Source: a virus
Taxonomy: Duplodnaviria; Heunggongvirae; Uroviricota; Caudoviricetes
Virus record (IMG/VR): IMGVR_UViG_3300033121_001642
Coordinates: 1 to 64,000 of that record
Length of the DNA stretch: 64,000 nt
Direction: 5' to 3' (one strand)
Shown: positions 39,373 to 62,891 of the stretch, piece after piece
How positions within the stretch are numbered: position 1 is the first letter of the stretch
How the letters are laid out: every line of letters starts with the position of its first letter
Program-made: the position numbers and the translations under genes
The notes under the pieces: generated by a model
The model's database searches: none
The model's input: the letters and a program-made list of their open reading frames with translations, nothing else
Told to the model about the DNA's origin: nothing

Positions 39373-39373
39373 T

Positions 39374-44953: not shown

Positions 44954-44982
44954 GAACACAGAGAATATCTCTGTGTTCTTAT
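44954..44982 (+). terminator. perfect 10-bp hairpin GAACACAGAG-AATAT-CTCTGTGTTC followed by a T-rich tract; terminator after dut and before the giant gene
   Basis: Read directly. Confidence 0.55.
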
Positions 44983-45042
44983 TGCATTATATTTAGCTTT
45001 AGCGCTACCCGATAATAGTATAGGAACTTTTGGGGGATACGA

Positions 45043-48000
45043 ATGCCATTTAAGTTTTTTGCTAGTTTTGAGTTTACTGGATCGCCAACATCTGAGCAGT
45101 TTAGGTTTGCTTATGGCATGGGCGTTATGAAAAACGTTCAAAGTCCCATATCCAATTATCAAACTCTAACAATTAATAACGACGCAATTAATCAGCATAT
45201 TGATAACGCTATTGCTCAAGGATATGAAGCTATTTGTTGGGACGAGAAAAACCCGAGATTTTATCTTTGGAATTCATCAATGACAGAGGCGGAAAAAGAC
45301 GCCGCTCTTGATTGTTTGGTTGAAATATATACAAAATCTAAGGCAAGAGCTATTCAGCAAGGGAGGCCCGATCTCAAAATTGGTTGGTGCGACATTCCGG
45401 GAGGTCATCCAAATAGCTATAACGCACCGTTGCAGTATACTCAAAGTCCAAGCAATCCTACATATCAGTCCAATTATCAATCATGGATTTCTTGGATGAG
45501 TAGGCTTTCACAGAGATACGTTAATGGGCAATATATCTCTTCTCCATTTTCAAATTGTTGTGATTTTGTTGCTCCAAGTTTGTATATATTTTATGGCAAT
45601 AGTCAATCTCTTATTGATGATTGGAAGATTTTTGCAGGTGTAACCCTTGATCAAATGAGGCTTAGGATAGCCAATGGGAAGCCTATTTATTCTTTTTGTT
45701 CATTTTCGTTTCATCCATCTTTTGTATATGTTGGAACAATGGCAAGCTATAATAATATGTCTCAAATGATTGCTTTATCTAAGCAAAAAGCTGACGGCAT
45801 AATTATGTACGGCGGGGCCAATGCAAGTTATAGATATGACAATTGGTTTTGGAGACCGTCTGGAGCGAACGAGGCAGCAGACTTAACTACTTGGAGAACC
45901 GTAACGAATGGTTCGTTTTCTATAACCATTGCCAATGTAAAACTAAAAATACAAAACATTAACACTTCGTCGGCGGTGTCAATGTCTCAGGTTGCCTCAG
46001 TTTTACAATCTGCAATACAGTCAAAAATTAGTTCTAGACCAAATCCTGCATATGACGGATATTATCCATTTCCTTTAGGGACCGTTACCGTAACATGGTC
46101 TTCTTCCCAAAAAGGCTTCTTGTTCAATATGACAACAAATGGATCTTCTACCCCAATGCCTCCAAACTTCCACAGAGGCTTGTTTACTATTGAGTCAAAA
46201 AATGCTTGGGGAGGGAATATAAGCGGAACGGATTTGGCAATTAGCCAGTTTATAGGAGTTCCAACAACAAATACCGCGGGGTTGCCTGGTAACACACAGT
46301 GGTTATATGGCGGAACTCAAAATAATATGGAATGGAGAGATTATGCTGAAGATCAAGACTGGTGGCAGTCTTATAGCGAAGCGTCTCTGGAAAATTCAGA
46401 GCTAAAAGATTTCAAATATTTTATATCTTCCGCCTATGCGGGTCAGCCTTCTTTTACTAGCTTTGAAACTTATGGAATTAATTTTATAAAAACAGGAGGA
46501 ATAACTCCGTTTGTTGAGAGTTACTCTCAAGCCGCAACAACACTTCTTACAAGTCCTTTAACTATTAGCGACAGCAACATTAATGCTGGAATTCTAGCGT
46601 ATCTTGATCCGTCTCTTGGTAGTAACCAATCATTTTATTATGCATATGATTTAGAGCAGTTTCAATCATATATTGATCCAACATCAAATTCTGATACTGT
46701 TATAGATAACATGCTAGAGTCGTTTAATAGAGCTTATACAAGAACAAAAGAACTTCTTGCGGTTCGTGGTATTAGCGATGTAAAGATAGGTTTTTATTTC
46801 AATCCAAACTTCAAAAGCTATTACGATCCTGTTCTTTACTGGTATACAAAAGGTAATAGTTTAGATTACACAACAAACTATAATACTTGGGTTTCTAAGT
46901 TTAGAAGAGTTAATCTTAGAAAATCAGGCGCAACTTATTATACAAAGAAGTTTTCAGATTATACCGATTTTATAACTTGTGAAGTTTGTCCTTTTTACGG
47001 AGAGCAAGACCCTCTTGATGATATTTACTATAAAGAGAACATTATCCAAGCAGCAAGATATACCGCAGCAAATAAGCCTCTATATGTTTTTTTGAATCCT
47101 TCTTTTCATTTTTCCACTCCTTGGTGTTCAAAGCTCGTAAGCGGAAATTACATGATCAAGATGCTTTCTTGGTGCAAAAGAATTGCTGACGGAGCTATTG
47201 TTCGGTCTGTTTATAGACCAAGCTATAGAAGGGCAAGAATGCGTCATTTTATGACAGCCTCAGGAGGCCCTCCTGCCGTTCCTTCTAAAACTCTTGCTGA
47301 TTGGCAGTCTATCACAAATGGTTGTTTTAATTATTTCGCGCAAGGATATACTAGATCGATTACAGACATTAATTTTTCAATAGCAACGAGCATTGGAGGG
47401 TTGGAATCAACGAGTGTTGCAAACATTATTGAATCAGCAATTAATGCTGATTTGTACTATATAAACAATTTCTTTCCAACCACAACCGCATATCCAAGCT
47501 TGTCATATTCAAGACCATATGAAGTCGGAAGCGTTGTTGTTTCTTATCAATCAAGCGTTTCCAACAACACCCCATTATCTTCAACTCAGGTTCCGTGTTT
47601 TGAGTTTACTTACACAACCCCTTCTATTCAGTCCCCTCCCGATCATAGCTCGTCTGAGGGGCGAGAATTTTTATATTGCTATGGTTATTCAGGATCTTTG
47701 CCTATTGGAGGAACAGATATAGGTTCCGCTCTTTGGATAGGAACATATTATAATACAGATCAAGAATATGATAGCAATGTTTATGCTGGTCAAGATTTTG
47801 ATTCAAATGAATGGTCTAATGGGTGGGTCGTTGGAAATGATTGGTGGCACGCTTTCTCCTCAATGGCAACTTCAGATAAATACACAAGAGATAGATCTAT
47901 AGCTGTTATGGAGAATTTTGGTTCTACAACATCCAATGGCATTATTAGGAGTTTTTCTGGCATGCCAACTGTTCCTCAATTAAAAGCTCAATACAATATT

Positions 48001-51000
48001 ATTAGAGCATATACCGCTTATACTTCCGATACGTCTTGGTCTCAATATACAGATCCATTTATTGACGCAAAGCTTGATGCTTTTATTGCTGAAAAAGCAG
48101 ATATATTTGTTTGGGATATCGAAGGCTCTTATTGCAATGTAACAGTAAATAGCCCAGATTGGGTTTACGGAGTCTCAGAATCTGAAGTTGACGCTAACCT
48201 TGAGCAATTCAAAAGTCTGTATACAAGAACGAAAATTAGAGCCGGATTGAAGGGCATATCAAATATTAAGGTTGGTTTTTATGGAACACCATTTACAGCC
48301 AATAGTTATTATGGAGCTTATTATTGGGGAAGCGGCGGCCTGGCCCACTCTGTTCCTGGTTCTGTTTTTGACGCAAGTATGAGAAGAATTAATCAGAGAT
48401 ACCAAAATGGGGTATATGTTACAACTCCTTTTGAAGATTATAATGACTTTTTTGCGCCTTCATTATATCCGCTATACCAGGGCTGGACAGCGGCAGAGAC
48501 AAATGAGATTTATGTTGTAAAAGGCTATATTGAAAAGATTATAGAAGTATTTGGAAAATCTAGACCCATATATCCATTTGTTCTTCCAACGTTTTCTGAA
48601 CAAGAAGGAGTAAATGCATTTTTGGGCATGGCTCAAAACTCAACTCTTTCTCAAGGAATGTATACTCAAATATTAGATTCAGGTGCTGACGGACTTATTA
48701 TGTGGTATTCAAAACAACCAAGCTTGTATACAAGTAATCATATATTTATTCCAAGCGTAAATAAAACTCTTTCTGATTGGCAATCTATCACGAATGGTTG
48801 TTTTATTATTGCTGTTGACGGTTATCCCGTTAAGGTTGAAGGTATAAATTTTTCAACAGCGGCAAGCATGACCGATGTTGCTCAAAAAATACAAGACGGA
48901 TTAAACAACAAAATAGCCACAATAACAATAGTTACAGCGTCAGACGGCTCTACATGGAATTCTGGATCTCCAACATCTCCTAGAAACATAGGAAATGTTA
49001 CAGTTGCTTGGGACTCGTTAAATCTTAGGTTTGTAATGAACACCACGAGAGGAACCTTGAAATCACCTAGCGGAATGGTGTTCCCGCCAGATTTTGACAA
49101 AGGATATTTTGTTATTAAGTCATGGACAGCCTGGACCGGAGGTTCTTCTCCTGGTTTTGATATAGGAGTTGACGAGTGGATAGGTCGTCACGACGTTTGG
49201 ACCGATTTGACAAGCACAAGAACAGACGCGGTTGGTGAGTTCGGAAAATGGATCGAGGACTCTCGTTGGTGGAATTCTTATAAGTCAATAGCTCTTGGAT
49301 CTTATGGAACAAATATATCCAACAGAATACTCCCCTTTATAAACGTTGTAACACCCTCTTCTGGAGATGCTCCTTTCACCGTTCATGTTGATGCCATTAA
49401 TTCTTATTTCAATGGAGTTGATATACAAGACTGCACATTCGAATGGGATTTTGGAGACAGCAATCCTCCTGTTTCTGTTATTTCAAGAACCATGATTTCA
49501 GATCCAAGAGTTGATTTTGATTTCAATTCTGACGGGATCGCTCATAGAAAAACGTCGCTATCTAGTAAACAAAGAGGCATTAATGCCGCTTATACTTATT
49601 ATCACGACAATGGCGGTAGTCCGTTTACAATAACTTTAAAGATATGGCACAATGGCGCTGTTAGCTCCACCGTTTCTACAACCGTTGTTGTTTCAAGCCC
49701 AACAGTGGACTCTTATCCGACTAACAATCCTAATAATTGGGTTTTATTGAAGGTCGTTCCAGAGCAGATTTCTCCTCCTGCGAATACCTTTCAAACAATA
49801 GACGCCGCTATTTCTTGGATTAATTCAAATAGAACTAACGGCAAGGCAATTATTGAACTCTTGCCAGGATATAGCGGTTCTGGTAATTTGAATTTTCCTA
49901 TTAATGGAAAAATTACAATAAGTAAACCAAATATCTTGATTAGAGCCTCAACAGTATATTCAACACAGAAGCCAAGAATCGTTGCCAAAAATGGCTCTTT
50001 TACTAGAAGTTCTCCAACGGCTTTGTTTGAGCTAGCGGCAACTGCGTATAATGTTATTTTCCAAGACATTCAATTTGGAGCGTCTGCTAATGTTGCAGGA
50101 GATCCTGGTGGTTTTGAACAGGGAAGCGATAATACTTCTAACCTTATAGGATGTGTTGTAAAATCTCCGGCTTCTGCCACCACAAACACAAGTAATATAA
50201 CGTTTTCGAACTGTACGTTTAGAAATCTTTATCAAGCCGTTACGACATCGCACTTTGTAACTGGTGTATATTTTAATCAATGTCATACGTCAACAACAAA
50301 GATCAAGAGCTACGACTTTATAGGTTGTAATTTTGTTATCAACAAAGGAGTCCATGCAACCTTGAGTGGTTTTGAGGCTGGTGGCTCATTGGCTCTTGCT
50401 GTAAGAACACCGGCTGACTCTCCAATTAACTTTGGAGCAGATAGCAGTCTTGCAGAAAAACTTTCTATGAATTTTTGTAGAATAGATCACTTTGCAACAT
50501 TTCATGGATCTTTAATATCTTCTTCAGGCCCTGTCAATTTATACAACGCAAGATACGTCACTGTTTATGGTTCTATTTTACAAGATGGTTCGAACAATTT
50601 AAACGATGTTTTTTCAGTTAGGTTTGATTCAAATGAAATGTTAGCTGGTGGAACTAAAAGCTTGTTTGTTGTAACAGCACCTTCTTCGGATATAACTATA
50701 GTTAATAATATTTTAAGGCCAAACTCGTATACGGCCGGTTCCAGAATAAACTCTGGTTTATTTGAGTTTGGCGGATCTTATGGTCTTATAAATAATCTTA
50801 AAATAGGAAACAACACAGCAATAGCTGATGTGAATACAAGCTATCAAAAAGCCTTCTGGAATTTTACCACAGCAACAGGCGTTGGTTTGAGTAATATTGA
50901 ATTTGTAAATAATCTCAATACAGAGCATGGTGGTTATTGTATATCTAGATGGATTTCTGTTGGAAATAATGTAGGCCAGTTTGGCAAATTTAGTAATAAT

Positions 51001-54000
51001 ATATGGCCGCAGAGATTTGGTTTTATGGATTTTGCTTTTATTAATGGAACTATAAAAACATGGGATCAATGGGTGTCTGCTGGATACGAAGACAGTCCGT
51101 CTCAGTTTGAGGTTATAACGGTAAGTTTGCAGTCAGTTTACAAATATAAGCTTGATTCTGCAACCAACACTCCTTTGGCGACGACATCTATTTTATATCC
51201 TGCGGCTTGTAAGGATTTTAATGACGAGTTTAGAGGGTCGTTTAATTGCGGTGTTGGAGCAACAAAACCATATGCTCTTTCTTATTCAACGGCTGCGTTC
51301 ACGGTTTCGCCAAATGTTACAACAAGAACAAGAACAACAGAGCCAGGATGGACACCTCCGTCAGGTTGCCAAAATGCCTTTGTTGCCATTACAGATCCTG
51401 TTACAAACACAATTGATAATAATTTTGCAATAACTCAGAAGCCGGTAATCAAAAAGCTTTCAGCTAATGTTTTAGAAATGGTTGATTTTATTCCAGTTGG
51501 TTATTCTTCTTCAAGAGCTTATAGAGTAAAGTTTGACCCAAGCGGTAACGCAAATATAATAGATGCGTTCTTTGGAATGCTATGGGAAGGAGGAGTCAAG
51601 AAACTTGGAGCTATTTTTATTAGAAATGATTATGTTGCTTTTTCTATAACAAACATACCTATTGGATCTTATACAACTATTACTGATCTTTTCAATGCGG
51701 TTTCTTCGGCTATAAACACTTTATTTGTTAATAATAACCTTGGCAATCCGTCTGTTATTATAGATCTTTTTGGATGCGGATATCTTTCTCCGTCTTTATT
51801 GGCATTTCCTTCGAGCAGCGTAACGAGCATATACACAACAGGTTCGAGGTGCTACAATGTTTGGACTTTTGCTTCTTTTTCAAACATCACTCTTGGCAAT
51901 TATATTAAAACAACAATATCAGTGACCCCAACCACTGACGGATATGATGCATTAATAACTTACACAAACGACGGCCCGTCTGGAGCGAACGACAGCGTAA
52001 CGGGTGATATAAGACAAAGAATAGGAGTTATTAGGGTTGAAGGTATTCTTTCTGGATACAAAGGTAAACTCTTGCTGACCAATGACGGAACGAGACTTTC
52101 TAATTATGATACTTCATTTATGAACTATTTTGGATCTGGTATTTTGTATCCATTTGATAAGTTTTCTCCTGTTACGGTTGCGATAGGAGAAACATACGCT
52201 GTTGGCGTTTCTCTTTTGTATAATTTTGCAACAAGTCATTTGTATAATCAAGAGTTTATTGGGCAATACGGAGGAGGTATTGTCAATAGACTATCTTGGT
52301 TGACAAATCTCGATAGCGATAATCTTTCTGCCGTTAATGCTGACTGTTTGGCTCGCGGCCAATCTATGCAGGTAACCGTTTCTGTTAGAGTTACTAGAAA
52401 TATTAGAGACTGGGTTAAAACTCTTGCTCCATATAAAGCTTATTTTGCAGCTACATACGGGTCTGTCAATTATATTAAAGACCCTCGCCCTATTCGCCCC
52501 ATAACACCTGCCGCCACCCACAGCGGTCAGCCATTGTATTTTCATGGGCACGAAGATCAAAATAATCAAAACCCAGCCCGTTGGGGTTGGGCTTGGTATG
52601 CTAATAAGATAAAATATCTATATAATACTCTTGGGTACGAAAGATTTTTTATGTGGTGTCCTGCTGGGTTGTACTATAATGGAAACGGAGCGAATTACCC
52701 GTCCATTGTTTTAACGCCATTTTTTGATACAATAGGAAAATTCCCGCACTCTTCTAGCGCAGCAATATCAGATAGTTGTTATACTTTACTTAATAACGTT
52801 TGTGTTCCTGGAACGTTTACTATAAATTCAGATTTGTTTAAGGGAACAATATATATGCTGAGAGACGCAATACAGGAAGTTCCCATGTTTGGTTTCTATC
52901 AAGGATATGGTACTATTGTTCATAAAAAATGGAATCCAGCACGCAGCGATATTGTTGGATTCAAGGACATATCTTCTGCTGAAATTATGAATTATGCAAA
53001 TAATGAATTACACTTAATGTCTTATTATGCAAAAACAAACATGATAGGCCTTGACGCATATGCCTCAGGTACGCAAGACGGGCTTATACAAAACAAAAGA
53101 GCGCTTGATTTTATAGGATACAAATATGACGGGTTGAAACTTCTTGCTGAAAAATCTCTAGAAGACGTAACAAGCATTAATTGTATAAACTATTTGTTCT
53201 CTCCAGAACTTCAATCAGGACCAAATGTTGTTGCAGATTATATTGTTCCTGGACACGAAAGCCTTGCTATGCTTTATCCAAATCTTTCTTGGTCTGATTT
53301 TCCAGCAGGAACATATAATGAAGGTCAAATAAAGAACATGCTTGCGGCTTTTGCAAGATGGGGTTATGTTGTTGGAAGCGTAGATAACGAAATACATTCT
53401 TCTCCAAAATCGTCTCTTGTTGATGCTTCAGTTTTTAACTCTGCTGACATGCGATTTGTTTATGATCAAAAACCTGCAAGCGTTTTGTCTCTTGCAGCCC
53501 CTTCTGGTTTGCAACACAAGATTATTGATGCGGTTGTTAATAATGATTATCCAGACGTTCATCAACAATCAATTATTTTATCATGGAACGCTAATACCGA
53601 AACCGATTTTAGCCATTATGTTGTTTCTAGACCTAGAATAATAAATGGAGAACCAGATTTTGATCTTCCATATCAAGAAAAGCTATATACGAAAAATACC
53701 ATCTTTGTTGATTATCAAGTTTTTCCTGCGAAAACATATTATTATAAAATTGTTGCATATGACGTAGACGGCAATGCTTCTTCTCCAACTTTTTATGAAG
53801 TAACCCATATAGCTGACGATCCAATACTTAATCCACCAAAGAATGTTTCTTCAACAGCTAATATTGGAGATGGCAATATTGTTGTTACATGGGACGCTCC
53901 TTCGTCCGAGTTTGAACCCTCTTCTACCAATAGAGTACCTCCAAAGTTTATTATACAAGGAAGCAGTAGAGCGGCTGATCTTGATAATGAGCTTTTTGAT

Positions 54001-55281
54001 TTGTCAAATACCTACATACTTGTTAGCGCTCCAATATCGACAGGCGATTCTGACGCAAGAACGATGGATCAGCGCGCTCAGTTTGCTAGAGATCTTATTG
54101 TTGAAATAAGAAATAAGTGGGCTTCTGTAAGGCCTGGTCAGCCATTTAGATGGGCTTTTTGTCCGCAAGGGTTCGGCTTGTATAATTGGGGAAGCTCTAA
54201 CACTTCTCTGTTTAGACACTCTGGCGACTTCTTGCTTGGTGGTACTTGCTTGTGGACAGCTAGCGGTATAGCAGAGGCAAGGTCTAGAATGCTAACATAT
54301 TTTGGGTTGTTAGCCAATTATTTATCTCAAAATGGCATTCCTGCGCCTTTGTATATTGATCCAATGTTTGAAGGAGATAGCGGGGCTTCTTTGGCTGGCG
54401 GCAATTGGAACAATAGACTACTTTGGCACGGCAACCTTATGGCAGATAGCCGTTCTACAAATGAGTTGTTTGATGGAACTATAACATATGCAGAGTATAT
54501 AGGTTCTTTGAAAGATTTGGATAATATTTCCATTCCAACTTCAGAGTTGTATCCTTATATATACGACACTTCTTTTACTTCTTCAAAGAGAGTTCACGTT
54601 TATAGCAGTATTGAGTCTAGAAGAACTGATTGGGCTCTTTATAAATCGCTGTTTGAGCCAGCAAAATCTGTATGGCCTAATGTTATATGCGGTAATTATT
54701 CTTTGTTCGGTTCTACTAGACAATATCTTGGAAGCGTAAGAAGATTCAGAGAAAGCCCTGTTGATTTTGGTCAATATATGAAATCCGATGTTCAAGTTTT
54801 GCCAAATTATAAATGGCAGGTTATTGACGGAAAGAGCCTTCCTTCAGGATATGGTTATAATACATATATTGAGAATTCTTTGAAATATAACATAGACCTT
54901 AATAAAACCAAAAATTCTAATGAAATAGTAAAAGCCATGAGAATAGGGTCTCTTGATTATGCGCTGAAAGGTTGCGAAGGAGCTAACCCTAACAAACCAG
55001 TGGCTACTTGGTTGCAGTATAATAATATACCAGTTATATATAACGATCTTTACGAAGGCTCCAGTCCAAAATATCCAGCAAATTTTAGAGCATGCATTAT
55101 TGATGATAGAGATCACATGATGGGGCTGTTTAGGGTTCTAAACAAGAGAAACATATCTATAGTTGGATGGTACTGCGGTCAAACTCTTGGTTCTAGCAAT
55201 ACGCAAGAGGATACTTCGGATACTTATAGCAAGATATATGAGGTTATCAGTAATCTTAATGAAGCTGGTTATGTTGTTTGA
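45043..55281 (+). CDS. giant (3412 aa) tail-fibre/depolymerase-like protein: three tandem ~700-aa repeats (TIM-barrel glycoside-hydrolase-like module + 'L(T/S)xW(Q/R)(S/T)(I/V)TNG(C/S)F' module), PKD-like domain (WDFGDS), right-handed beta-helix repeats, FN3 domain, long C-terminal region
   Basis: Internal repeats ..ADGIIMYGGANAS / ..DGAIVRSVYRPS / ..DGLIMWYSKQPS; PKD FEWDFGDSNPP; FN3 LSWNANTETDFSHYVV..TYYYKIVAYDVDGNASSP; NxTFxNC beta-helix rungs. Confidence 0.8.
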   Translation: MPFKFFASFEFTGSPTSEQFRFAYGMGVMKNVQSPISNYQTLTINNDAINQHIDNAIAQGYEAICWDEKNPRFYLWNSSMTEAEKDAALDCLVEIYTKSKARAIQQGRPDLKIGWCDIPGGHPNSYNAPLQYTQSPSNPTYQSNYQSWISWMSRLSQRYVNGQYISSPFSNCCDFVAPSLYIFYGNSQSLIDDWKIFAGVTLDQMRLRIANGKPIYSFCSFSFHPSFVYVGTMASYNNMSQMIALSKQKADGIIMYGGANASYRYDNWFWRPSGANEAADLTTWRTVTNGSFSITIANVKLKIQNINTSSAVSMSQVASVLQSAIQSKISSRPNPAYDGYYPFPLGTVTVTWSSSQKGFLFNMTTNGSSTPMPPNFHRGLFTIESKNAWGGNISGTDLAISQFIGVPTTNTAGLPGNTQWLYGGTQNNMEWRDYAEDQDWWQSYSEASLENSELKDFKYFISSAYAGQPSFTSFETYGINFIKTGGITPFVESYSQAATTLLTSPLTISDSNINAGILAYLDPSLGSNQSFYYAYDLEQFQSYIDPTSNSDTVIDNMLESFNRAYTRTKELLAVRGISDVKIGFYFNPNFKSYYDPVLYWYTKGNSLDYTTNYNTWVSKFRRVNLRKSGATYYTKKFSDYTDFITCEVCPFYGEQDPLDDIYYKENIIQAARYTAANKPLYVFLNPSFHFSTPWCSKLVSGNYMIKMLSWCKRIADGAIVRSVYRPSYRRARMRHFMTASGGPPAVPSKTLADWQSITNGCFNYFAQGYTRSITDINFSIATSIGGLESTSVANIIESAINADLYYINNFFPTTTAYPSLSYSRPYEVGSVVVSYQSSVSNNTPLSSTQVPCFEFTYTTPSIQSPPDHSSSEGREFLYCYGYSGSLPIGGTDIGSALWIGTYYNTDQEYDSNVYAGQDFDSNEWSNGWVVGNDWWHAFSSMATSDKYTRDRSIAVMENFGSTTSNGIIRSFSGMPTVPQLKAQYNIIRAYTAYTSDTSWSQYTDPFIDAKLDAFIAEKADIFVWDIEGSYCNVTVNSPDWVYGVSESEVDANLEQFKSLYTRTKIRAGLKGISNIKVGFYGTPFTANSYYGAYYWGSGGLAHSVPGSVFDASMRRINQRYQNGVYVTTPFEDYNDFFAPSLYPLYQGWTAAETNEIYVVKGYIEKIIEVFGKSRPIYPFVLPTFSEQEGVNAFLGMAQNSTLSQGMYTQILDSGADGLIMWYSKQPSLYTSNHIFIPSVNKTLSDWQSITNGCFIIAVDGYPVKVEGINFSTAASMTDVAQKIQDGLNNKIATITIVTASDGSTWNSGSPTSPRNIGNVTVAWDSLNLRFVMNTTRGTLKSPSGMVFPPDFDKGYFVIKSWTAWTGGSSPGFDIGVDEWIGRHDVWTDLTSTRTDAVGEFGKWIEDSRWWNSYKSIALGSYGTNISNRILPFINVVTPSSGDAPFTVHVDAINSYFNGVDIQDCTFEWDFGDSNPPVSVISRTMISDPRVDFDFNSDGIAHRKTSLSSKQRGINAAYTYYHDNGGSPFTITLKIWHNGAVSSTVSTTVVVSSPTVDSYPTNNPNNWVLLKVVPEQISPPANTFQTIDAAISWINSNRTNGKAIIELLPGYSGSGNLNFPINGKITISKPNILIRASTVYSTQKPRIVAKNGSFTRSSPTALFELAATAYNVIFQDIQFGASANVAGDPGGFEQGSDNTSNLIGCVVKSPASATTNTSNITFSNCTFRNLYQAVTTSHFVTGVYFNQCHTSTTKIKSYDFIGCNFVINKGVHATLSGFEAGGSLALAVRTPADSPINFGADSSLAEKLSMNFCRIDHFATFHGSLISSSGPVNLYNARYVTVYGSILQDGSNNLNDVFSVRFDSNEMLAGGTKSLFVVTAPSSDITIVNNILRPNSYTAGSRINSGLFEFGGSYGLINNLKIGNNTAIADVNTSYQKAFWNFTTATGVGLSNIEFVNNLNTEHGGYCISRWISVGNNVGQFGKFSNNIWPQRFGFMDFAFINGTIKTWDQWVSAGYEDSPSQFEVITVSLQSVYKYKLDSATNTPLATTSILYPAACKDFNDEFRGSFNCGVGATKPYALSYSTAAFTVSPNVTTRTRTTEPGWTPPSGCQNAFVAITDPVTNTIDNNFAITQKPVIKKLSANVLEMVDFIPVGYSSSRAYRVKFDPSGNANIIDAFFGMLWEGGVKKLGAIFIRNDYVAFSITNIPIGSYTTITDLFNAVSSAINTLFVNNNLGNPSVIIDLFGCGYLSPSLLAFPSSSVTSIYTTGSRCYNVWTFASFSNITLGNYIKTTISVTPTTDGYDALITYTNDGPSGANDSVTGDIRQRIGVIRVEGILSGYKGKLLLTNDGTRLSNYDTSFMNYFGSGILYPFDKFSPVTVAIGETYAVGVSLLYNFATSHLYNQEFIGQYGGGIVNRLSWLTNLDSDNLSAVNADCLARGQSMQVTVSVRVTRNIRDWVKTLAPYKAYFAATYGSVNYIKDPRPIRPITPAATHSGQPLYFHGHEDQNNQNPARWGWAWYANKIKYLYNTLGYERFFMWCPAGLYYNGNGANYPSIVLTPFFDTIGKFPHSSSAAISDSCYTLLNNVCVPGTFTINSDLFKGTIYMLRDAIQEVPMFGFYQGYGTIVHKKWNPARSDIVGFKDISSAEIMNYANNELHLMSYYAKTNMIGLDAYASGTQDGLIQNKRALDFIGYKYDGLKLLAEKSLEDVTSINCINYLFSPELQSGPNVVADYIVPGHESLAMLYPNLSWSDFPAGTYNEGQIKNMLAAFARWGYVVGSVDNEIHSSPKSSLVDASVFNSADMRFVYDQKPASVLSLAAPSGLQHKIIDAVVNNDYPDVHQQSIILSWNANTETDFSHYVVSRPRIINGEPDFDLPYQEKLYTKNTIFVDYQVFPAKTYYYKIVAYDVDGNASSPTFYEVTHIADDPILNPPKNVSSTANIGDGNIVVTWDAPSSEFEPSSTNRVPPKFIIQGSSRAADLDNELFDLSNTYILVSAPISTGDSDARTMDQRAQFARDLIVEIRNKWASVRPGQPFRWAFCPQGFGLYNWGSSNTSLFRHSGDFLLGGTCLWTASGIAEARSRMLTYFGLLANYLSQNGIPAPLYIDPMFEGDSGASLAGGNWNNRLLWHGNLMADSRSTNELFDGTITYAEYIGSLKDLDNISIPTSELYPYIYDTSFTSSKRVHVYSSIESRRTDWALYKSLFEPAKSVWPNVICGNYSLFGSTRQYLGSVRRFRESPVDFGQYMKSDVQVLPNYKWQVIDGKSLPSGYGYNTYIENSLKYNIDLNKTKNSNEIVKAMRIGSLDYALKGCEGANPNKPVATWLQYNNIPVIYNDLYEGSSPKYPANFRACIIDDRDHMMGLFRVLNKRNISIVGWYCGQTLGSSNTQEDTSDTYSKIYEVISNLNEAGYVV

Positions 55282-55293
55282 TAAGGGGTATTT

Positions 55294-57318
55294 ATGATTT
55301 TGCCTATAGATTTTGCATACTATGAAATTTATCGATCAAATCAATCTGATGGTGTTTTCTCTTTAATAGGGACTTCTACAACAGAGGATTTTGTTGATTC
55401 GACTGCTGCTCTTGGAAATACATATTGCTATAAGGTTGTTGCTGTTGATATTTATGGTAACAGATCAGAATCAAGCACGGTCACTTGTGTTTTTTTTTCG
55501 ATTCAGGGACCAACCCCGGACGGGGGCCAGCAAACAATTGTCAATCCTACCGCAATACTTTCAAAGGACAACGTTGTTTGCGTTTATCGAGAAGGGGACG
55601 CAGACAGCCTGTCGTCCGCATTGCGATATAAAGAGATTCATGGCCTTGAAGATAACCAATTGATAGCTATAGCATGTTCTAATAGAGAAGTATTATCAGA
55701 TTATATAGAGTTTCAAGAAGAAGTAGAAGACCCTATAAGATCTGCTATAACAAGCTATCCAGTTTCTGATCGAAGTGTTTATGCAATTGTTTTGATGCCA
55801 TATGTTCCTGGTGGGTTTAGAGACGGTTCTGATGTTGTGTCTTCAACATCGAGGCTTTCTAGAATATTTTACCCATTTGAAAAGAATGCTGTTAATCCGG
55901 TTTATAATAGGCAAGTATTTAATAGGTTTGACGGTTTTGATGCTTTGCAATCTTTGATTTGCACAAGAATTGATGGACCAAACATTATTACAGCCTCTTG
56001 GTTTGATAATATTGAAACAGCAAAAGGAAGATCTCAGGTTGGGGGTAAGTTTTATTTTGATCCATATTCATCTTATTCATTTGAAGGAGCTTCTGATTAC
56101 TCGTTAGAGCTTCTTGATTTTAGAGACAATTATATAGGAAGGCTTGGTTTAGCAATCGAGACAACCTCTCAATCTTTTCCTTCTATAGATCCTTTTTTCT
56201 CTCAAATTGAAGGAGATTCGTTTTTCTGGGGATGGGGCGCTGACAGAGGTTCTTTGGGTTATTTCCAGGCAACGGCGGAAACGAGAGCTTTCTTTTACAA
56301 CGCTGATTTTGACGGCGGATTTTCTATAAGAGACTTGGACGCTCGCTCTTGGCCTATACTTGCCATAAGGCAAGGGTATACCGCTGCGGCAGGATCTATG
56401 TCTGGAGCAAATGCGCGTGCCTTTTTGAGGCCTGTTCCTTTTATGGACGCTCTTTTTAGAGGAGCAACAATGGGCGAGGCCATGTTCTTTTCCCAACCTC
56501 TTTTAAATTCTACAATAGCTTGCTTTGGTGATCCGTTGGCTTTCTATTCTTTTCCTGTTTCGTTTGCAGAAAGAATTCTTTTGTCTCCCCCAAAGGCGTG
56601 GGATAATATGGAAAATTGCTTGGCCGAAGCTGTCGCCTGTATATACAGAAAAGCAAAAGTTCTTGACAATCTTCGAACGTATGTAGCAAGCGGATCGGAC
56701 GAGTTTATTCAAGAAGAATTGATATATCCATTCGATCAGTTGTCCGCAGAGTTTGATGATTTATCGTGGAGAAATGATTTTGTTCAATTAACAGGAAAGC
56801 TTGTTAATTTCGTTGTTGATAAGAATGCGACCGCTTATGATTTTGCATATCCTAATCTTAATCAGTATTTGACATATACTGGTACCAGGGTCTCTGGTAT
56901 TGTTTTAGAAACTCTTCAAAATCAGAGCCTAATAGGCTCGATTGTTCCGACGAACATAGAAACCGTTGGGTCTTGGAATTTTGAAACTACTCTTCAACAC
57001 TATCCTGGTGATTTTAGGTTCTACCATTTTGAATTACAGATCGCTAGAGAATATGACGATTTTGATAAAGGCAACATATTGATATCAAAAGATACTTTTG
57101 TTGATACAACTAACTGGTATTTTGAAGATTATAATGGAAATTTTCAACCCTTTTCTAGTAACGGCATAACCAGTAATTATGAAGATAAGAAGATAAGATA
57201 TGTAAATCAATCTTCTGAACTTTTGATTCGAGGAGAGTTTTATTGGTTTAGAGTTAGGCAGAAAGATGAATTGCAAGAGTTTGATTGGAGATTTTCTAGA
57301 GAGATTATTTATCTATAA
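55294..57318 (+). CDS. hypothetical structural protein beginning with the C-terminal half of an FN3 domain (DFAYYEIYRS..NTYCYKVVAVDIYGNRSESS)
   Basis: Same frame as upstream giant gene after a TGA TAA double stop; FN3 strands C-G only. Confidence 0.7.
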   Translation: MILPIDFAYYEIYRSNQSDGVFSLIGTSTTEDFVDSTAALGNTYCYKVVAVDIYGNRSESSTVTCVFFSIQGPTPDGGQQTIVNPTAILSKDNVVCVYREGDADSLSSALRYKEIHGLEDNQLIAIACSNREVLSDYIEFQEEVEDPIRSAITSYPVSDRSVYAIVLMPYVPGGFRDGSDVVSSTSRLSRIFYPFEKNAVNPVYNRQVFNRFDGFDALQSLICTRIDGPNIITASWFDNIETAKGRSQVGGKFYFDPYSSYSFEGASDYSLELLDFRDNYIGRLGLAIETTSQSFPSIDPFFSQIEGDSFFWGWGADRGSLGYFQATAETRAFFYNADFDGGFSIRDLDARSWPILAIRQGYTAAAGSMSGANARAFLRPVPFMDALFRGATMGEAMFFSQPLLNSTIACFGDPLAFYSFPVSFAERILLSPPKAWDNMENCLAEAVACIYRKAKVLDNLRTYVASGSDEFIQEELIYPFDQLSAEFDDLSWRNDFVQLTGKLVNFVVDKNATAYDFAYPNLNQYLTYTGTRVSGIVLETLQNQSLIGSIVPTNIETVGSWNFETTLQHYPGDFRFYHFELQIAREYDDFDKGNILISKDTFVDTTNWYFEDYNGNFQPFSSNGITSNYEDKKIRYVNQSSELLIRGEFYWFRVRQKDELQEFDWRFSREIIYL

Positions 57319-57329
57319 ATGAGGAATAA

Positions 57330-60300
57330 ATGGCCTGGAATGCTAACATATCAATAAATTCAGACTCCTTCGGTTATGCGCCGTTTACTGTTTTTGTATC
57401 AGCAAGCGGCAGCAGCTTTGATGTTTACACCTCTCAGGATGTTGAGTATCTTTGGGATTTTGGAGATCCCTCGCCTCCTTTGAACGGAAATCAAGATAAT
57501 GAAAGGTATTATTCAAATCCTTCAGGGTATCAAGATCTAGACTTAATAAACGTAACAACCAATCAACCTGTTACTGGAAATTTTAAGAACAAAACTAAAT
57601 TTCCTATCCCAACAATTGATTCAGACGTAGATAATACAGGACACTCAAAGTGTAGCGGCTATTCAAACACAATGCAAAGAGGATCAACTGCTGCTTATAC
57701 TTATTATCACGATAATGAAGGTAATCCGTTTACGATAACTTTGAGAATTTTTTATGGAGGCGTAGAGGTTGCAAGCAGTAGTCTTGAGGTATCCGTATCG
57801 CCGTCTACAGTTTACAATTCGTGGACAAATGCAGAAATTACCAATCCTGTTGATACTATAAATCAAGACGGTTCGTATGTTAGTTTGAAAATAAATCCAT
57901 ATTACACCAATCCTGGGCAAGACGACGATAGCGACTCAGAGTGTAACGAGTTTGCAACGCTAGCAAAAGCTATTTCTTGGGCAAACAACTGGCACCCAAA
58001 CTTTGTTAGATATGTTCTTACTAATGATAGCGATGTTTATGATTTTAGTATTTCTGCTCCAATATACATTGAGGGAAGCGATCAAATTATAACGGTTTCT
58101 GACTATCAATACTCGAATCGTTTTTCACTGGTGTCTGACTACAATCCTGGCGCTGAAGAAAATTTGATAACACTTAAGGGGCATAGAGTATATATAGAGA
58201 ACATAACTATAAAAGGCTATGGTCCAACTTCAAGCTCTGAGCTTGTTGGTGTTTTTATTGACGCCTCTCAAGAAGAGGCTTGTTTTCATAATTGTTCTTT
58301 TTCTGGATTAAAAATTGGTATTTCAATAAACGGATTAAAATGCTATTTAAATAGAATTCTTTGTTCTGTTAGCGGATCTGATTATCTTTTTAAGGAGAAC
58401 TTCATAAAAGGATCTGAAACAGAGAATCTTGTTATGACAAATTTAGAAGTATCTAGTTTTTCTGATACAACAAGAACGCTGTATGAAAAACAAGGCAAAA
58501 TGATTGATATTGCTCGTTCCAGTTATATTGTTTTACAGTGGTCGTATTTTGACAACGCTCTAACTCTTGAAAATGGATACGCCTCGCCTGGTGGAGATTC
58601 TTTGGCGTATGGCTTTTTGTATGATACATTTGACGAACTATCGGCAGGTGCGTTTAGGTTTTATATAAATACAAATTTTGATATTTGTTCTAATTGCTTT
58701 ATAAGAGGATGTTCGGAAATTGATGATTGTTTTTATGCGAGACTGGCAGGCAATTATTTTTCTGGCGCAGGCGGAGGACAGAAATCAGATCCAAGCACAG
58801 TTGTTCAAAAAAGAGCTTGTTTATATCTAAACAATCAGCAAAACAAAATTAGTATTGTTAGTAATATCTTTGAGCTAAAATACAATAACATGCTTTGTTC
58901 TGCTATTTTGTTTGAACCAACATCCTCTAAGCATCAAGTTTCAATTTTGAATAATATGTTTTTACTATGGTCAAATGTCTCAAAATATTCTGCTGTTTGT
59001 GATTTTGCCGCAGACGCTTCCGCTCTCGAAGATTTTGTTTTTAGTCAAAATATATTTGTTGAAAACAAAATTAATTGTATGTCAAACTACATTTCTTATA
59101 ACACAGATCAAATCAATGGCAAGATATATGATAACATTTATCCAAAATCATCGAGTCTCGAAAACGTTAGAGCGGCGCTGATCGACGGTGTTCAAGTTGA
59201 TTGTAAGACATTTTTTGAATTATACGAATCAAAGTTTTTTGTCATAGAAATAGAAGACTGTTTGCCAGAAAGATCTTTTGCTTTAGATTTGTTAAAGTAC
59301 GAAGCTTTTGCGGAAGTTTCCCCCATTGGTTCTGTTGTTAGAAACTATTCGCTAGAACTGCTTGATTCGTCCATATCTCAAAGGTTTTGTGCCTCCTCTT
59401 TCGTTAATTTTTCAAACGATTCTTCTCAGTTTAGCGTTTCGTCTTCGCTGTCATATAGAAGCCGACCAACAAATATAAACGCCGTTGCAAATGATTCTCA
59501 TAATCTTATATTTGAGATAAGAGATCCTTCTTTTATTGAACAAGACAATGACGGAGTTACTTCCGCAAAAATAATTATTGGGCAATCGTATGGGTTGTCG
59601 GAATCCGAAGCTGCTGAAAATCCATATATTTCTCTTTTGAATGGAGTTGGAGACTATATAAAGACAACAATTTCTACTTCCGTTAAATCAGACGGAATAG
59701 ATATTACTGTTGTTTATACCAATGACGGTCCATTATCTCAGGTTCTTGGGTCTGCTGCTCAAAAAATGGGAACCATAGATATTGACGGAGTATTTTGCGG
59801 AAGAAATCTTTCGTTGCTAACAGATTTGAATGGAATGAGTTTTAATAGCTATATGTTTCACGCAAAACAAGAGCTTGATACAAGCAATGACGATAGGAGA
59901 TATCCATACAAATTTGCTCCTATTAGTTGTTATCTTTTGAAAAACCATGCAGTTGTTGTTTCGTGGACCGCTGATTATGTAAACTCTGATAAAATGTTTC
60001 AAGAAATAACTTCGTCCAGATCAGAATCTGAAGGGGTTGTTTATTCTAGAGGTAAAACTCAGATAGAGTGGTTGGCAAATACAGGAAGTTCTGTTTCTTA
60101 TTATAATGATTGTTTGCAAAAAGGAGATTCTTTTTCCATAACCATATCTGTTAGGATTACAAGAGATCCGTCTAAATGGGTTTTGAAAGCTCAGCCTTGG
60201 AAAGATTATTTACAATCCAATCATGAAATGGTTCACACCAGAGACCCAAGACCTGTCTTTTTAGAAATTATGACAACGAATCCAGGCTCGACTCCATTGT

Positions 60301-61562
60301 TACTTAATGCTTCTTACAATATACCTTCAACAGGATATTCGTCTTACATAGATAACGTTATTTCAAACGTTGTTAATAAGAATTATCAAAGGTATATGGT
60401 TTGGGAGATTCTTGGTAACAATGAAAATGGATTAAACTATTATCCTCAGATTTTGACTCCAATATACAGAAGTCAGTATCCCTGGACTGGATATCCAAAT
60501 ATGCTTTCTTCAATATCTGGTTTGCAAAGACTTGGCGAAGAGATCTCTCAGTTTGGTTTTTATCAAGGTTACGGAGATTTGACTGCAACAAGCTCAACTA
60601 TATATGGACCGTCTGTTGAGTATGAAACTATTGATTTTACAGATACCGCACGAATGCAGAAATTCTATGACGAGCTAGATCTTGCTTCTGATTTATTTTG
60701 GGCAAATTCTCTGGGCTTGGATTCCTTTGGAACTATTTTTAACCAAAACCAAATGAAGAACGCATTGGATCTTATGGATGTGTATAAGGAGCGATATCCA
60801 AATATGTCTTTGTTGGTAGAGAAAGCAAAGCAAGACGTTTTTTGTTTTAGGGGTGCTTCGTGTTTGTTTTCTTATGACGGGGTGTACGGACCTCATCATC
60901 TTGCAAACTTTTTAGTTCCAGGAAACGAACATTGGTGTATCGATTATGGCATTGAAGGATCGGATTTGAGCCTTGTTGAAGCAGAGGTCTTGTATAGACT
61001 TGAGGCAATAGCGTCTTATGGCTATGTGGTTGGCGGTTATGATTTGAGCGCTTATTCCAATCTCAACCCTTTATCTTCTAGCTTTGAGGCGATTGATAGA
61101 AGATTTGATTTTGTAGAAGTTCCTTCTAATTATACTTCGACTGTTGCTCCTTCCTCTCCGATTGGTCTTAGGTATGGTTTGTATAATAAAGAAAGAAATA
61201 CAACATACACAACCGATAGAAAATATATAAAGATATTTTGGGATGCCAGCGAAGACCCGGATTTTAGCCACTACATCGTTTATAAATGTAAGATTTCTAA
61301 TCAGGTAATAGACTCAACGACCGCAAATTTCGTTAGAAGACAATATACAAAAAATCCGTTCTTTTACGATACGGCGGTTAGAGTAAATTCGACTTATTAC
61401 TATCAAGTTTCTGCTGTCGATGTTTTTGGTAACGAATCAACCAAATCAAGCGTTCTTGTTGTTCCGTTTGTTCCTGATGATCCTGTTTTGGAGCCGCCGT
61501 CTTCTGTAATTGCAGTAGGAGATGTTGATCAAAATGCAATAACAATAAGTTGGAGTTCATAA
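57330..61562 (+). CDS. 1410-aa paralog of the C-terminal two-thirds of the 45043 gene: PKD-like (LWDFGDPSPP), beta-helix, shared C-terminal blocks (RDPRPV, FGFYQGYG), FN3 ending ..ITISWSS-stop
   Basis: Blocks alignable by eye with the giant gene (AAYTYYHDN(G/E)G(S/N)PFTITL(K/R)I). Confidence 0.75.
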   Translation: MAWNANISINSDSFGYAPFTVFVSASGSSFDVYTSQDVEYLWDFGDPSPPLNGNQDNERYYSNPSGYQDLDLINVTTNQPVTGNFKNKTKFPIPTIDSDVDNTGHSKCSGYSNTMQRGSTAAYTYYHDNEGNPFTITLRIFYGGVEVASSSLEVSVSPSTVYNSWTNAEITNPVDTINQDGSYVSLKINPYYTNPGQDDDSDSECNEFATLAKAISWANNWHPNFVRYVLTNDSDVYDFSISAPIYIEGSDQIITVSDYQYSNRFSLVSDYNPGAEENLITLKGHRVYIENITIKGYGPTSSSELVGVFIDASQEEACFHNCSFSGLKIGISINGLKCYLNRILCSVSGSDYLFKENFIKGSETENLVMTNLEVSSFSDTTRTLYEKQGKMIDIARSSYIVLQWSYFDNALTLENGYASPGGDSLAYGFLYDTFDELSAGAFRFYINTNFDICSNCFIRGCSEIDDCFYARLAGNYFSGAGGGQKSDPSTVVQKRACLYLNNQQNKISIVSNIFELKYNNMLCSAILFEPTSSKHQVSILNNMFLLWSNVSKYSAVCDFAADASALEDFVFSQNIFVENKINCMSNYISYNTDQINGKIYDNIYPKSSSLENVRAALIDGVQVDCKTFFELYESKFFVIEIEDCLPERSFALDLLKYEAFAEVSPIGSVVRNYSLELLDSSISQRFCASSFVNFSNDSSQFSVSSSLSYRSRPTNINAVANDSHNLIFEIRDPSFIEQDNDGVTSAKIIIGQSYGLSESEAAENPYISLLNGVGDYIKTTISTSVKSDGIDITVVYTNDGPLSQVLGSAAQKMGTIDIDGVFCGRNLSLLTDLNGMSFNSYMFHAKQELDTSNDDRRYPYKFAPISCYLLKNHAVVVSWTADYVNSDKMFQEITSSRSESEGVVYSRGKTQIEWLANTGSSVSYYNDCLQKGDSFSITISVRITRDPSKWVLKAQPWKDYLQSNHEMVHTRDPRPVFLEIMTTNPGSTPLLLNASYNIPSTGYSSYIDNVISNVVNKNYQRYMVWEILGNNENGLNYYPQILTPIYRSQYPWTGYPNMLSSISGLQRLGEEISQFGFYQGYGDLTATSSTIYGPSVEYETIDFTDTARMQKFYDELDLASDLFWANSLGLDSFGTIFNQNQMKNALDLMDVYKERYPNMSLLVEKAKQDVFCFRGASCLFSYDGVYGPHHLANFLVPGNEHWCIDYGIEGSDLSLVEAEVLYRLEAIASYGYVVGGYDLSAYSNLNPLSSSFEAIDRRFDFVEVPSNYTSTVAPSSPIGLRYGLYNKERNTTYTTDRKYIKIFWDASEDPDFSHYIVYKCKISNQVIDSTTANFVRRQYTKNPFFYDTAVRVNSTYYYQVSAVDVFGNESTKSSVLVVPFVPDDPVLEPPSSVIAVGDVDQNAITISWSS

Positions 61563-61563
61563 T

Positions 61564-62346: not shown

Positions 62347-62360
62347 TTTGAGGAATTTTC

Positions 62361-62891
62361 ATGAGTTCGTCTCTAAGCGACAAAACCCCTGCCCAATCGT
62401 GTAATGACCTTCTGTATCTCAATAATGACAATATAGGAGTCACAAGCGATCTAGTAACCGTTTATGGCGGTAACGGCATTCCTACGCCGTTAAAGCTGTC
62501 CACAGAAAAAATGGAGGCCTCGTTCAATAAGGGGGCTTTGGTAAAACCCGTTATTGATTCGTACCATCTAAAGTACAACGACATAGGAGAAGTTGGAGCT
62601 ACTTATCAAATTAGCACAACTGCTGGCAACGTTCAAAAACTCACGCTTACCGAGAATCTATCGCTAACATTTTTGCATAATTTAGACGAAGGTTCTGCAT
62701 TTGAACTGACCTTGCTTGTTGAGCAGTCAACAGGCGGTCATACCGTTTCGTTTCCGTCTTCGTTTAGAAAACCTGGACAAACAAATATAACCTTATCTTC
62801 GACAGCTAATGCGATAGACGTATTGAAGCTTCTAACATATAATGGTGGAGAAGATTGGTTGGTTTATAAAGAAGCTTCAGATTTGAGGTAA
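62361..62891 (+). CDS. hypothetical protein (176 aa), likely structural
   Basis: ORF with GAGGA RBS. Confidence 0.5.
   Translation: MSSSLSDKTPAQSCNDLLYLNNDNIGVTSDLVTVYGGNGIPTPLKLSTEKMEASFNKGALVKPVIDSYHLKYNDIGEVGATYQISTTAGNVQKLTLTENLSLTFLHNLDEGSAFELTLLVEQSTGGHTVSFPSSFRKPGQTNITLSSTANAIDVLKLLTYNGGEDWLVYKEASDLR

Follow-up and report, generated by a model that had tools for sequence, protein, structure and literature searches.

Locus and gene context

The window analyzed here is a stretch of 64,000 nucleotides of viral DNA (Caudoviricetes; positions 1 to 64,000 of IMG/VR record IMGVR_UViG_3300033121_001642). According to the ORF list and its translation, it contains at 45043..55281 a reading frame for a giant protein of 3412 amino acids, followed by a stop codon and preceded by a Shine-Dalgarno-like GGGGGA at 45033-45038. 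This gene and all features given below with coordinates are on the plus strand. The upstream neighbors encode a ribonucleotide reductase and a dUTPase. A hairpin that can be read directly from the sequence, AGAACACAGAG-aatat-CTCTGTGTTCT (44955..44981), separates the dUTPase gene from the giant gene and may be a terminator or mark a unit boundary. A scan for sigma-70 promoters gave a count equal to the shuffled expectation.

On the 3' side, the genes follow each other with gaps of 12-15 nt, such that the giant gene heads a tight run (45043-62891) that also holds a paralogue of it and ends in a gene for a 176-aa tail-fibre-like protein (62361..62891; PHROG tail-fibre families, E 1e-9). The orthologue of this last protein in L001 has a Phage_phiTE_241_C domain. 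Neither holin nor endolysin genes were seen among the neighbors of the giant gene.

At least eight full-length orthologues of the giant protein, all metagenomic, were found (P0001-P0006, P0011 and P0016; 3383-3429 aa, 44-81% identity). Eight independent full-length copies rule out an assembly artefact as the origin of the reading frame. The contigs bearing the orthologues are 248-495 kb long, and a homologue with 83% identity is encoded by a 334-kb IMG/VR viral contig, which together with the phage-type neighbors places the locus in a phage.

With the whole protein as query, Pfam gave DUF3383 (PF11863) as the only family match. PHROGs and NCBIfam returned no match, and neither did the PDB, with the sequence or with the full-length profile. 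In 50,697 phage records, megablast and tblastn found a single matching stretch of 106 aa, in a contig that has no annotation, and nothing else, and among these records and the PHROGs there is no match to annotated phage tail proteins or known structural proteins. No virion-attachment domain, that is, no tail or baseplate anchor, was recognized in the protein, and it has no signal peptide. The initial annotation had called it a tail fibre, a designation that these searches leave unsupported; it is the gene context that suggests attachment to the tail or a tail-fibre identity.

The repeated units

The N-terminal part of the protein consists of three tandem units of about 455-510 aa each (aa 1-454, 455-965 and 966-1428), which match each other in BLASTP with E values of 1e-21 to 3e-30 and 25-32% identity, far beyond chance. 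The tandem triplication that had been proposed initially is thus borne out, and all the motifs quoted for it are present and mutually aligned, but the units are shorter than the suggested ~700 aa, and the repeats stop at aa 1428 instead of extending over ~2100 aa. Each unit is composed of a TIM-barrel domain resembling glycoside hydrolase family 56 (GH56) and a module resembling the flexible domain of tail sheath proteins. Self-BLAST, the unit alignment and a residue census place the barrels of units 1 and 2 at aa 1-272 (45043..45858) and aa 455-737 (46405..47253); that of unit 3 spans aa 966-1237 (47938..48753). The overall conservation is similar across the three units. Since homologues with a single unit exist (P0018 and P0019), the triplication is specific to the lineage of the giant protein.

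The relationship of the barrels to GH56 runs through intermediate sequences. Neither the giant protein nor the three-unit profile matches GH56 directly, be it PF01630 (Glyco_hydro_56) or the members in the PDB. When the unit domain was used for an exhaustive profile search, however, 427 relatives were obtained at E<=1e-3, and hhalign of the three-unit profile against a profile of 60 database relatives has a probability of 100% (E 1.8e-43). In the PDB, the profile of the 60 relatives finds the hyaluronidase of bee venom (1FCQ, E 1.6e-11), the human enzyme HYAL1 (2PE4, E 1e-7), PH-20 and Ves v 2. Of the 60 sampled relatives, 18 match PF01630 (best E 4e-8) and 6 match DUF3383, and the best whole-protein PF01630 score in the listed tables is 19.7 bits (P0033), under the cut-off of 23.2 bits.

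An AlphaFold model of unit 3, of moderate confidence (mean pLDDT 63, falling to about 49 around W1221), shows a distorted (beta/alpha) TIM barrel closest to GH56, with 2ATM and 2PE4 as the best Foldseek matches (E about 1e-4). Via the relatives' profile, the motifs can be mapped on HYAL1: DiE on D129/E131, GFY on Y202, PSxY on Y247, and ADGxxxW on W321. These HYAL1 residues are reported to be the essential tyrosines, the proton donor and the acid that supports it (PMC4077683). The sequence chain from the units via the intermediates and the moderate-confidence model thus support the view that the repeated barrel is glycoside-hydrolase-like, a distant relative in the GH56 superfamily. A hydrolase-like TIM barrel, with GH56 among the candidate families, had been guessed in the initial annotation, and the motifs noted there turn out to be those that mark the active site of GH56 (DxE, GFY and ADGxxxW).

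Compared with the animal GH56 enzymes (1FCQ, Ves v 2 2ATM, HYAL1 2PE4 and PH-20 9JUB), the barrel has D-x-E, G-F-Y, P-S-x-Y and ADG-x3-W in the identical order, although the identity over the structural alignments is only about 12-14%. Unlike these enzymes, the giant protein lacks an EGF-like C-terminal domain, and its barrel is triplicated, with two copies degenerate, inside a phage protein of 3412 aa. Prokaryotic and viral proteins among the 427 relatives (for example P0018-P0027, P0033 and the Planctomycetota protein MCY2952924.1) belong to the same barrel family, but have one unit where the giant protein has three, and each of them has a hypothetical-protein annotation. Small proteins of about 260-320 aa that stand alone are common among the relatives. 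In P0018, P0019, P0024, P0026 and P0027, the same cassette of barrel and DUF3383-like module is present, and P0018 and P0019 share in addition the entire architecture downstream of it. In P0026, a Tail_completion_gp17 domain is fused to the cassette, and in P0033 the barrel is combined with FN3 and CBM6.

We now turn to the second part of each unit. These modules cover aa 273-454 (45859..46404; PF11863 stretch, local module HMM E 3e-72), aa 738-965 (47254..47937; PF11863 stretch and local module HMM) and aa 1238-1428 (48754..49326). PF11863 matches the giant protein with an E value of 5.8e-29 in three stretches, the best of which is aa 1229-1335 in unit 3, and in all three it is only positions 86-166 of the 493 profile positions that are matched. 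This segment corresponds approximately to residues 91-210 of Pa193 gp32, its "flexible domain". Fold matches of the unit 3 module are the sheath proteins of E217, Pa193 and XM1, with overlaps of 129-153 residues. By homology, the second part of each unit thus belongs with the flexible domain at the periphery of tail sheath proteins of the Pbunavirus type. The "LxDWQSITNGCF..INFS" element of ~50 aa that had been described as a module is indeed conserved, but it is only the core of a module of about 180-230 aa whose sheath-type character had gone unrecognized there. In the sheath proteins themselves (PF11863 / E217_gp31_N; E217 gp31, Pa193 gp32 and XM1 gp6), the flexible domain is accompanied by a core and by arms at the N- and C-terminus, from which the contractile lattice is built. 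Since the giant protein has neither core nor arms, it does not count as a sheath protein. Near aa 2195-2227, several orthologues hint at a possible remnant of a fourth module of this kind, at a level that is not significant (iE 0.05-0.16).

Catalytic residues

Of the three barrels, only that of unit 3 has the full catalytic set in 9/9 orthologues. It consists of D1025-x-E1027 (nt 48115-48123), Y1080, P1139-S-x-Y1142 and D1216-G-x3-W1221, and the residues are invariant in all nine with the exception of S1140 (8/9) and D1216 (7/9), with identities of this domain to the window protein of 38-87%. Without selection on the active site, such retention would be difficult to account for. Of the hydrolase fold and the catalytic acidic pair on which the initial assignment hinged, unit 3 has the GH56-like fold in its model and the pair as D1025-x-E1027.

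In unit 1, the corresponding motif reads W-D67-E68-K69, with a lysine at the position of the glutamate, and the equivalents of Y202 and W321 are a cysteine and a tyrosine, respectively. Unit 2 keeps D536-L-E538, but has a cysteine at the Y247 equivalent and an arginine at the W321 equivalent, and its glutamate is replaced by D or K in 3/9 orthologues. Having drifted at the catalytic sites and yet been conserved, the folds of units 1 and 2 are likely kept for something besides catalysis, and the two are probably glycan-binding or spacer modules, not enzymes. For unit 1, E68 is invariant, adjoining D/N67, which means that an altered but active site may exist there. The suggestion of three glycanase domains giving multivalent degradation is in any case not supported by these residues.

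The C-terminal part and the paralogue

The remaining about 2000 aa comprise six regions. The first is a PKD-like domain at aa 1429-1560 (49327..49722), recognized by the motif FEWDFGD...YTYY...FTITLKIW, with a weak PKD_4 match (E 0.07) in one orthologue. It is followed by a probable right-handed beta-helix region at aa 1561-2090 (49723..51312), identified by a pattern scan and by reading, with the rung-like motifs ITFSNCTFRN, YDFIGCNFVIN, LSMNFCRIDH, ITIVNNILRP, LKIGNNTAIA and IEFVNNLNTE between about aa 1660 and 1990. No match at threshold was obtained for this region in Pfam, PDB or PHROG, the weak hints being Adeno_E1B_55K in P0019 (E 0.034) and WcaM in the paralogue (E 0.01).

R3 (aa 2091-2340, 51313..52062) is beta-rich and is the most variable region among the close orthologues, with 59-73% identity. 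R4 (aa 2341-2800, 52063..53442) is a conserved domain with the motifs DPRP, GYER, FGFYQGYG, GLDAY, PGNE and ARWGYVVG that, from the alignment of the two proteins, is also present in the paralogue; R4 gave no match in PDB or Pfam, and the profile of R4 and the paralogue gave chance hits only in the PDB. The FN3-like region (aa 2801-2990, 53443..54012; motif SWN..T..DFSHY...YYYKIVAYD) reaches E 0.0054 with fn3, below the Pfam cut-off. The PKD-like, beta-helix and FN3 parts proposed initially are thus visible as motifs, while their HMM scores are sub-threshold (E 0.005-0.011 for fn3). The C-terminal domain R6 (aa 2991-3412, 54013..55278) is missing from P0019, a homologue of 1940 aa, as well as from the paralogue, and its identity is mosaic, 88% to P0001/P0002 versus 64% to P0003/P0004. 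Mosaic C-terminal identity of this kind is usual for receptor-binding proteins.

No fold was assigned to R3, R4 and R6 (about 1100 aa): the C-terminal profile search of the PDB was empty, and an AlphaFold model of aa 2225-3412 from 6 sequences had a pLDDT of 32.6 and was unusable. We have also considered that the C-terminal domains could be further GH56-like barrels or internal repeats, but all hhalign probabilities were below 1%. The paralogue (57330..61562, 1410 aa) corresponds to the PKD / beta-helix / R4 / FN3 part and lacks the GH56-like units. In BLASTP, its aa 773-1408 align with aa 2284-2950 of the giant protein (E 7e-65) and its aa 7-752 with aa 1433-2138 (E 2e-17).

Proposed function and alternatives

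With barrel-sheath-domain units of which only the third has every catalytic residue, the giant protein is probably a host-recognition protein that cuts and binds the sugar coat. Our preferred reading, to which we give somewhat better than even chances, is that an uncultured huge phage encodes here a modular protein that degrades and binds glycans and is most likely carried on the virion. Points against it are the indirect link to GH56, the failure to recognize a virion-attachment domain, the near-empty searches of PHROGs and phage records, the sub-threshold scores of the PKD-like, beta-helix and FN3-like parts, and the about 1100 aa with no assigned fold. Unit 3 is probably an active retaining endo-beta-N-acetylhexosaminidase. 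Glu1027 of the D-x-E motif would be the general acid/base, as in the animal hyaluronidases, and the nucleophile would be the 2-acetamido group of the substrate itself, positioned by Asp1025, Tyr1080 and Tyr1142. It would act on the capsule, the EPS or another surface glycan of the host that contains HexNAc, with units 1 and 2 acting as binding or spacer modules.

Another scenario is that the protein is not part of the virion at all, but a soluble enzyme freed at lysis, for example to release progeny from a biofilm matrix, or a factor that remodels the host surface. The position directly downstream of nucleotide-metabolism genes would fit, as would the lack of an identified anchoring domain and of matches to structural proteins. 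However, the hairpin parts the giant gene from the metabolic genes, and the run that it heads holds the paralogue and the tail-fibre-like gene. Furthermore, the second module is otherwise found in tail sheaths, and P0026 joins the cassette to a tail completion domain. The absence of a signal peptide also speaks against this scenario, although none would be needed for release at lysis. We consider this scenario rather unlikely.

The drift of units 1 and 2 at the catalytic positions, with their overall conservation, could also be read as the sign of a purely structural or adhesive fibre, in which all three barrels are non-catalytic and lectin-like and any enzyme activity resides in the unassigned C-terminal domains or in the beta-helix-like region, a feature typical of phage depolymerases. 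This is difficult to reconcile with the conservation of all GH56 hallmarks of unit 3 in nine orthologues as divergent as 38% identity, and the single-unit P0018 and P0019 keep the cassette too, making the adhesive fibre an unlikely option.

More speculative, and in our view doubtful, is the idea that the cassette is a mobile tail-decoration unit. The sheath-type modules would then dock the giant protein on the contractile tail or on a lattice of its own, and would present an array of barrels in which one cuts a HexNAc-containing host glycan and two former enzymes hold it. If true, a GH56-type enzyme system would be described here for the first time in a bacterial virus.

Finally, the chemistry of GH56 makes no demand beyond a 2-acetamido sugar at the -1 site, and peptidoglycan contains GlcNAc-beta-1,4-MurNAc bonds that would fit, so that unit 3 could cut the beta-1,4-HexNAc bond of peptidoglycan or another wall polymer at entry or lysis, as the lysin-typical size of the many stand-alone relatives might suggest; but this is improbable for a protein that at 3412 aa is unlike any lysin, has no lysin-type cell-wall-binding domain and no holin or endolysin neighbors, and whose PKD-, beta-helix- and FN3-like parts, like the CBM6 of P0033, better fit extracellular polysaccharide enzymes.

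Relation to known systems

GH56 hyaluronidases are regarded as enzymes of animals and venoms; no bacterial or phage enzyme of this type has been characterized, and the phage hyaluronidases known so far, such as HylP, are unrelated PL16 lyases that differ from GH56 in fold and mechanism (PMC11669647). A large uncharacterized prokaryotic and viral branch of the superfamily, with at least 427 cluster representatives, would widen the range of the family. In the present case the branch is built into a huge-phage protein of the host-recognition type, and it would be a lead to new enzymes that depolymerize capsules containing HexNAc. The giant protein is also a clear natural example of a domain that was tripled and then lost catalytic residues in two of its copies, which probably went from enzyme to binding module, and the pairing of the barrel with a peripheral sheath domain suggests how phages shift accessory domains among tail proteins.

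The preferred reading of a virion-borne glycan-degrading protein invites comparison with tailspike and fibre depolymerases (beta-helix enzymes such as P22 or K1F-type spikes; HylP PL16). The giant protein is like them in being large and modular, with a putative beta-helix-like region, putative Ig-like domains and mosaic C-terminal variation, and in its gene neighborhood, a run that includes a paralogue and a tail-fibre-like gene. It differs in having no sequence or HMM match to known tailspikes or fibres, and in that the catalytic candidate is an N-terminal GH56-like TIM barrel and not the beta-helix. A further point against the preferred reading is the N-terminus, which opens directly with an enzyme-like domain. 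This is unusual for tail fibres and spikes, because these normally anchor through their N-terminus.

Results and Discussion

The giant protein is encoded exactly where the initial annotation had placed it (45043-55281, + strand, 3412 aa, from the ORF list and translation), and GGGGGA stands 5' of the ATG. It aligns from end to end, at 44-81% identity, with eight orthologues (3383-3429 aa) recovered in independent assemblies, and this rules out an assembly or frameshift artefact as the origin of the ORF. Some of the orthologues lie on contigs of 248, 257 and 495 kb, and a 334-kb viral contig in IMG/VR carries a copy with 83% identity. The giant gene is separated from the dUTPase gene upstream by a perfect inverted repeat with an 11-bp stem (AGAACACAGAG-aatat-CTCTGTGTTCT, 44955-44981), followed by T-rich sequence. 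It may be a terminator or a regulatory hairpin that marks where a new transcription unit begins.

Aligning the protein with itself bears out the tandem triplication, at a level far above what chance would give, with BLASTP E values of 1e-21 to 3e-30 and 25-32% identity between units. The repeats had been described as three of ~700 aa over ~2100 aa, but they are shorter, at ~455-510 aa apiece and a total of 1428 aa: unit 1 spans aa 1-454, unit 2 aa 455-965 and unit 3 aa 966-1428. Single-unit homologues that share the downstream architecture exist, namely P0018 (2405 aa), whose whole length aligns with aa 971-3412 at 40% identity, and P0019 (1940 aa), which aligns with aa 971-2951 at 36%. The three-unit state is thus an expansion specific to the lineage of the giant protein.

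Each unit begins with a ~270-aa domain that bears the three motifs on which an earlier hydrolase assignment was based. When 1.84 billion cluster representatives were searched exhaustively with the profile of this domain (A2), 427 relatives were found at E<=1e-3. In a sample of 60 relatives, Pfam Glyco_hydro_56 is matched by 18 and DUF3383 by 6. The profile of the 60 (A4) finds GH56 enzymes of solved structure, namely those of bee venom (hyaluronidase 1FCQ, E 1.6e-11), human HYAL1 (2PE4, 1e-7), PH-20 and Ves v 2. By hhalign, the homology between A2 and A4 is unambiguous (probability 100%, E 1.8e-43). The PDB searched directly with A2 gave no match, and the sequence link between the units and GH56 is therefore transitive. 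The hydrolase assignment thus holds as a GH56-like domain and not as a direct family match, and because of the latter we do not count it among the strictly defined GH56 family members. The fold and active-site signature of GH56 are, however, both found in unit 3.

In HYAL1, Glu131 is the proton donor, Asp129 has a supporting role, and Tyr202 and Tyr247 are essential (PMC4077683). In the A4-HYAL1 alignment, where counting positions confirmed the chain numbering, the relatives' motifs DiE, GFY, PSxY and ADGxxxW fall on D129/E131, Y202, Y247 and W321, respectively. A census of 27 units from nine orthologues shows that unit 3 retains all of these residues in 9/9 (D1025, E1027, Y1080, Y1142 and W1221), as it does P1139. 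Unit 1 varies at every position: D129 (D 5, N 4), E131 (E 3, K 2, T 2, Q 2; K in the window), Y202 (Y 5, D 2, C 1, F 1; C in the window), Y247 (Y 4, N 4, Q 1) and W321 (W 4, Y 2, K 2, F 1; Y in the window). The residue just before the E131 equivalent of unit 1, the x of D-x-E, is an invariant Glu. Unit 2 keeps D129 and Y202 in 9/9 and varies at E131 (E 6, D 1, K 2), Y247 (Y 6, F 2, C 1; C in the window) and W321 (W 8, R 1; R in the window), and Cys replaces the Pro before the Y247 equivalent in 9/9. The model of unit 3 places D1025/E1027, Y1080 and Y1142 at the C-terminal ends of predicted strands, where the active site of a TIM barrel is expected.

We infer both activity and substrate for unit 3, which would likely be an active retaining, substrate-assisted endo-beta-N-acetylhexosaminidase. 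Of the three glycanase domains originally suggested, it is the one that keeps the full catalytic set. Overall conservation is similar across the three units despite the variation at the catalytic sites, so units 1 and 2 are functional, but probably not as GH56-type catalysts; they are probably copies turned into binding or spacer modules.

The second part of each unit is a module of ~180-230 aa. The 'LxDWQSITNGCF..INFS' motif noted earlier is present, not as a ~50-aa module but as the conserved core of this larger one, which matches positions 86-166 of Pfam PF11863 (DUF3383, now E217_gp31_N) in three stretches (E 5.8e-29). E217 gp31 is a tail sheath protein (PMC10329688), and its near-identical counterpart in Pa193, gp32, has a peripheral 'flexible domain' (residues 91-210) set into the sheath core (PMC11456595). 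Tail sheath proteins are also the best matches of the unit 3 model among predicted viral structures, and those of E217, Pa193 and XM1 superpose with it. The giant protein is nevertheless not itself a sheath protein: the core and arms of the E217/Pa193 type are missing, and what is shared is therefore an accessory domain. Judged from sequence, the barrel-plus-sheath-domain cassette is recurrent. It occurs alone in proteins of ~485-520 aa, and in P0026 (620 aa) its barrel and DUF3383-like module are joined to a Tail_completion_gp17 domain (24.8 bits, cut-off 24.5); P0033 (1019 aa) combines FN3, barrel and CBM6.

In the C-terminal ~2000 aa, the PKD-like motif (aa 1429-1560), beta-helix-like rungs (aa ~1660-1990) and FN3-like region (aa 2801-2990) of the initial annotation can be read from the sequence, but all family-model scores are sub-threshold (fn3 E 0.005-0.011; PKD_4 E 0.07; for beta-helix types, Adeno_E1B_55K E 0.034 in P0019 and WcaM E 0.01 in a 1410-aa paralogue). 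Regions R3 (aa 2091-2340), R4 (aa 2341-2800) and R6 (aa 2991-3412) have no match in Pfam, PHROGs, NCBIfam or PDB, and profile comparison rejects them as further GH56-like barrels. The AlphaFold model of aa 2225-3412, with a pLDDT of 32.6, is too poor to use. R6 (window 54013-55278) is 88% identical to P0001/P0002 vs 64% to P0003/P0004, while identity in R3 (window 51313-52062) is as low as 59%, against P0001. This mosaic among close orthologues suggests recombinational exchange of C-terminal modules, which is common in receptor-binding proteins.

We now turn to the gene context. The upstream genes are of phage type and serve replication and nucleotide metabolism; they encode helicases, AAA ATPases, a DHH protein, an intein-bearing ribonucleotide reductase and the dUTPase. 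The downstream genes are spaced 12-15 nt apart, and their order recurs on the 248-kb contig. They encode a 674-aa protein (55294-57318, +) that matches the full profile of TIGR03790, an uncharacterised family, below the curated cut-off (E 4.8e-12); the 1410-aa paralogue of the PKD, beta-helix, R4 and FN3 part (57330-61562, +; BLASTP E 7e-65, 2e-17), which lacks the GH56-like units and R6; a 260-aa protein; and a 176-aa tail-fibre-like protein (PHROG tail fibre E 1e-9), whose orthologue carries Phage_phiTE_241_C. A single gene run of this phage therefore holds the genes for two large modular proteins that are related to each other. The N-terminus of the 674-aa protein is similar to the FN3-like region found both in the giant protein and in P0019.

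A virion (tail) location is proposed from this gene context together with the sheath-type module and the fusion seen in P0026. No virion-anchor domain was found in the giant protein, nor any match to known tail proteins in PHROGs and the phage records searched, and its enzyme-like domains are N-terminal, which is unusual for tail fibres. In function it would resemble the polysaccharide depolymerases or receptor-binding proteins of phages, and the catalytic candidate that can be recognised in it belongs to the GH56 superfamily. A recent review treats GH56 as mammalian and venom enzymes and phage hyaluronidases as PL16 lyases (PMC11669647). Sequence and models point to a GH56-like clade of prokaryotes and viruses that had not been described before, to a cassette that recurs, and to a clear example of a triplicated unit whose catalytic sites have apparently decayed in two copies.

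Other features of the window concern inteins and ATPases. The ribonucleotide reductase large subunit (40774-44421, +, 1215 aa) contains an intein with a LAGLIDADG homing endonuclease; its 840-aa orthologue on the 248-kb contig (6844-9366) has no intein domains listed. An apparent intein (CLSENSEILD..., ...NHPFLTETGWVHVKDL) is also seen in the gene at ~62.9-64.0 kb (+), which runs off the window's end and whose orthologue on the same contig has Intein_splicing, LAGLIDADG_3 and MJ0330_N. Two AAA-type ATPase genes (11802-13418 and 39263-40720, +) match the same PHROG set (phrog_10440, 3757, 7485, ...), which suggests that they are paralogues.
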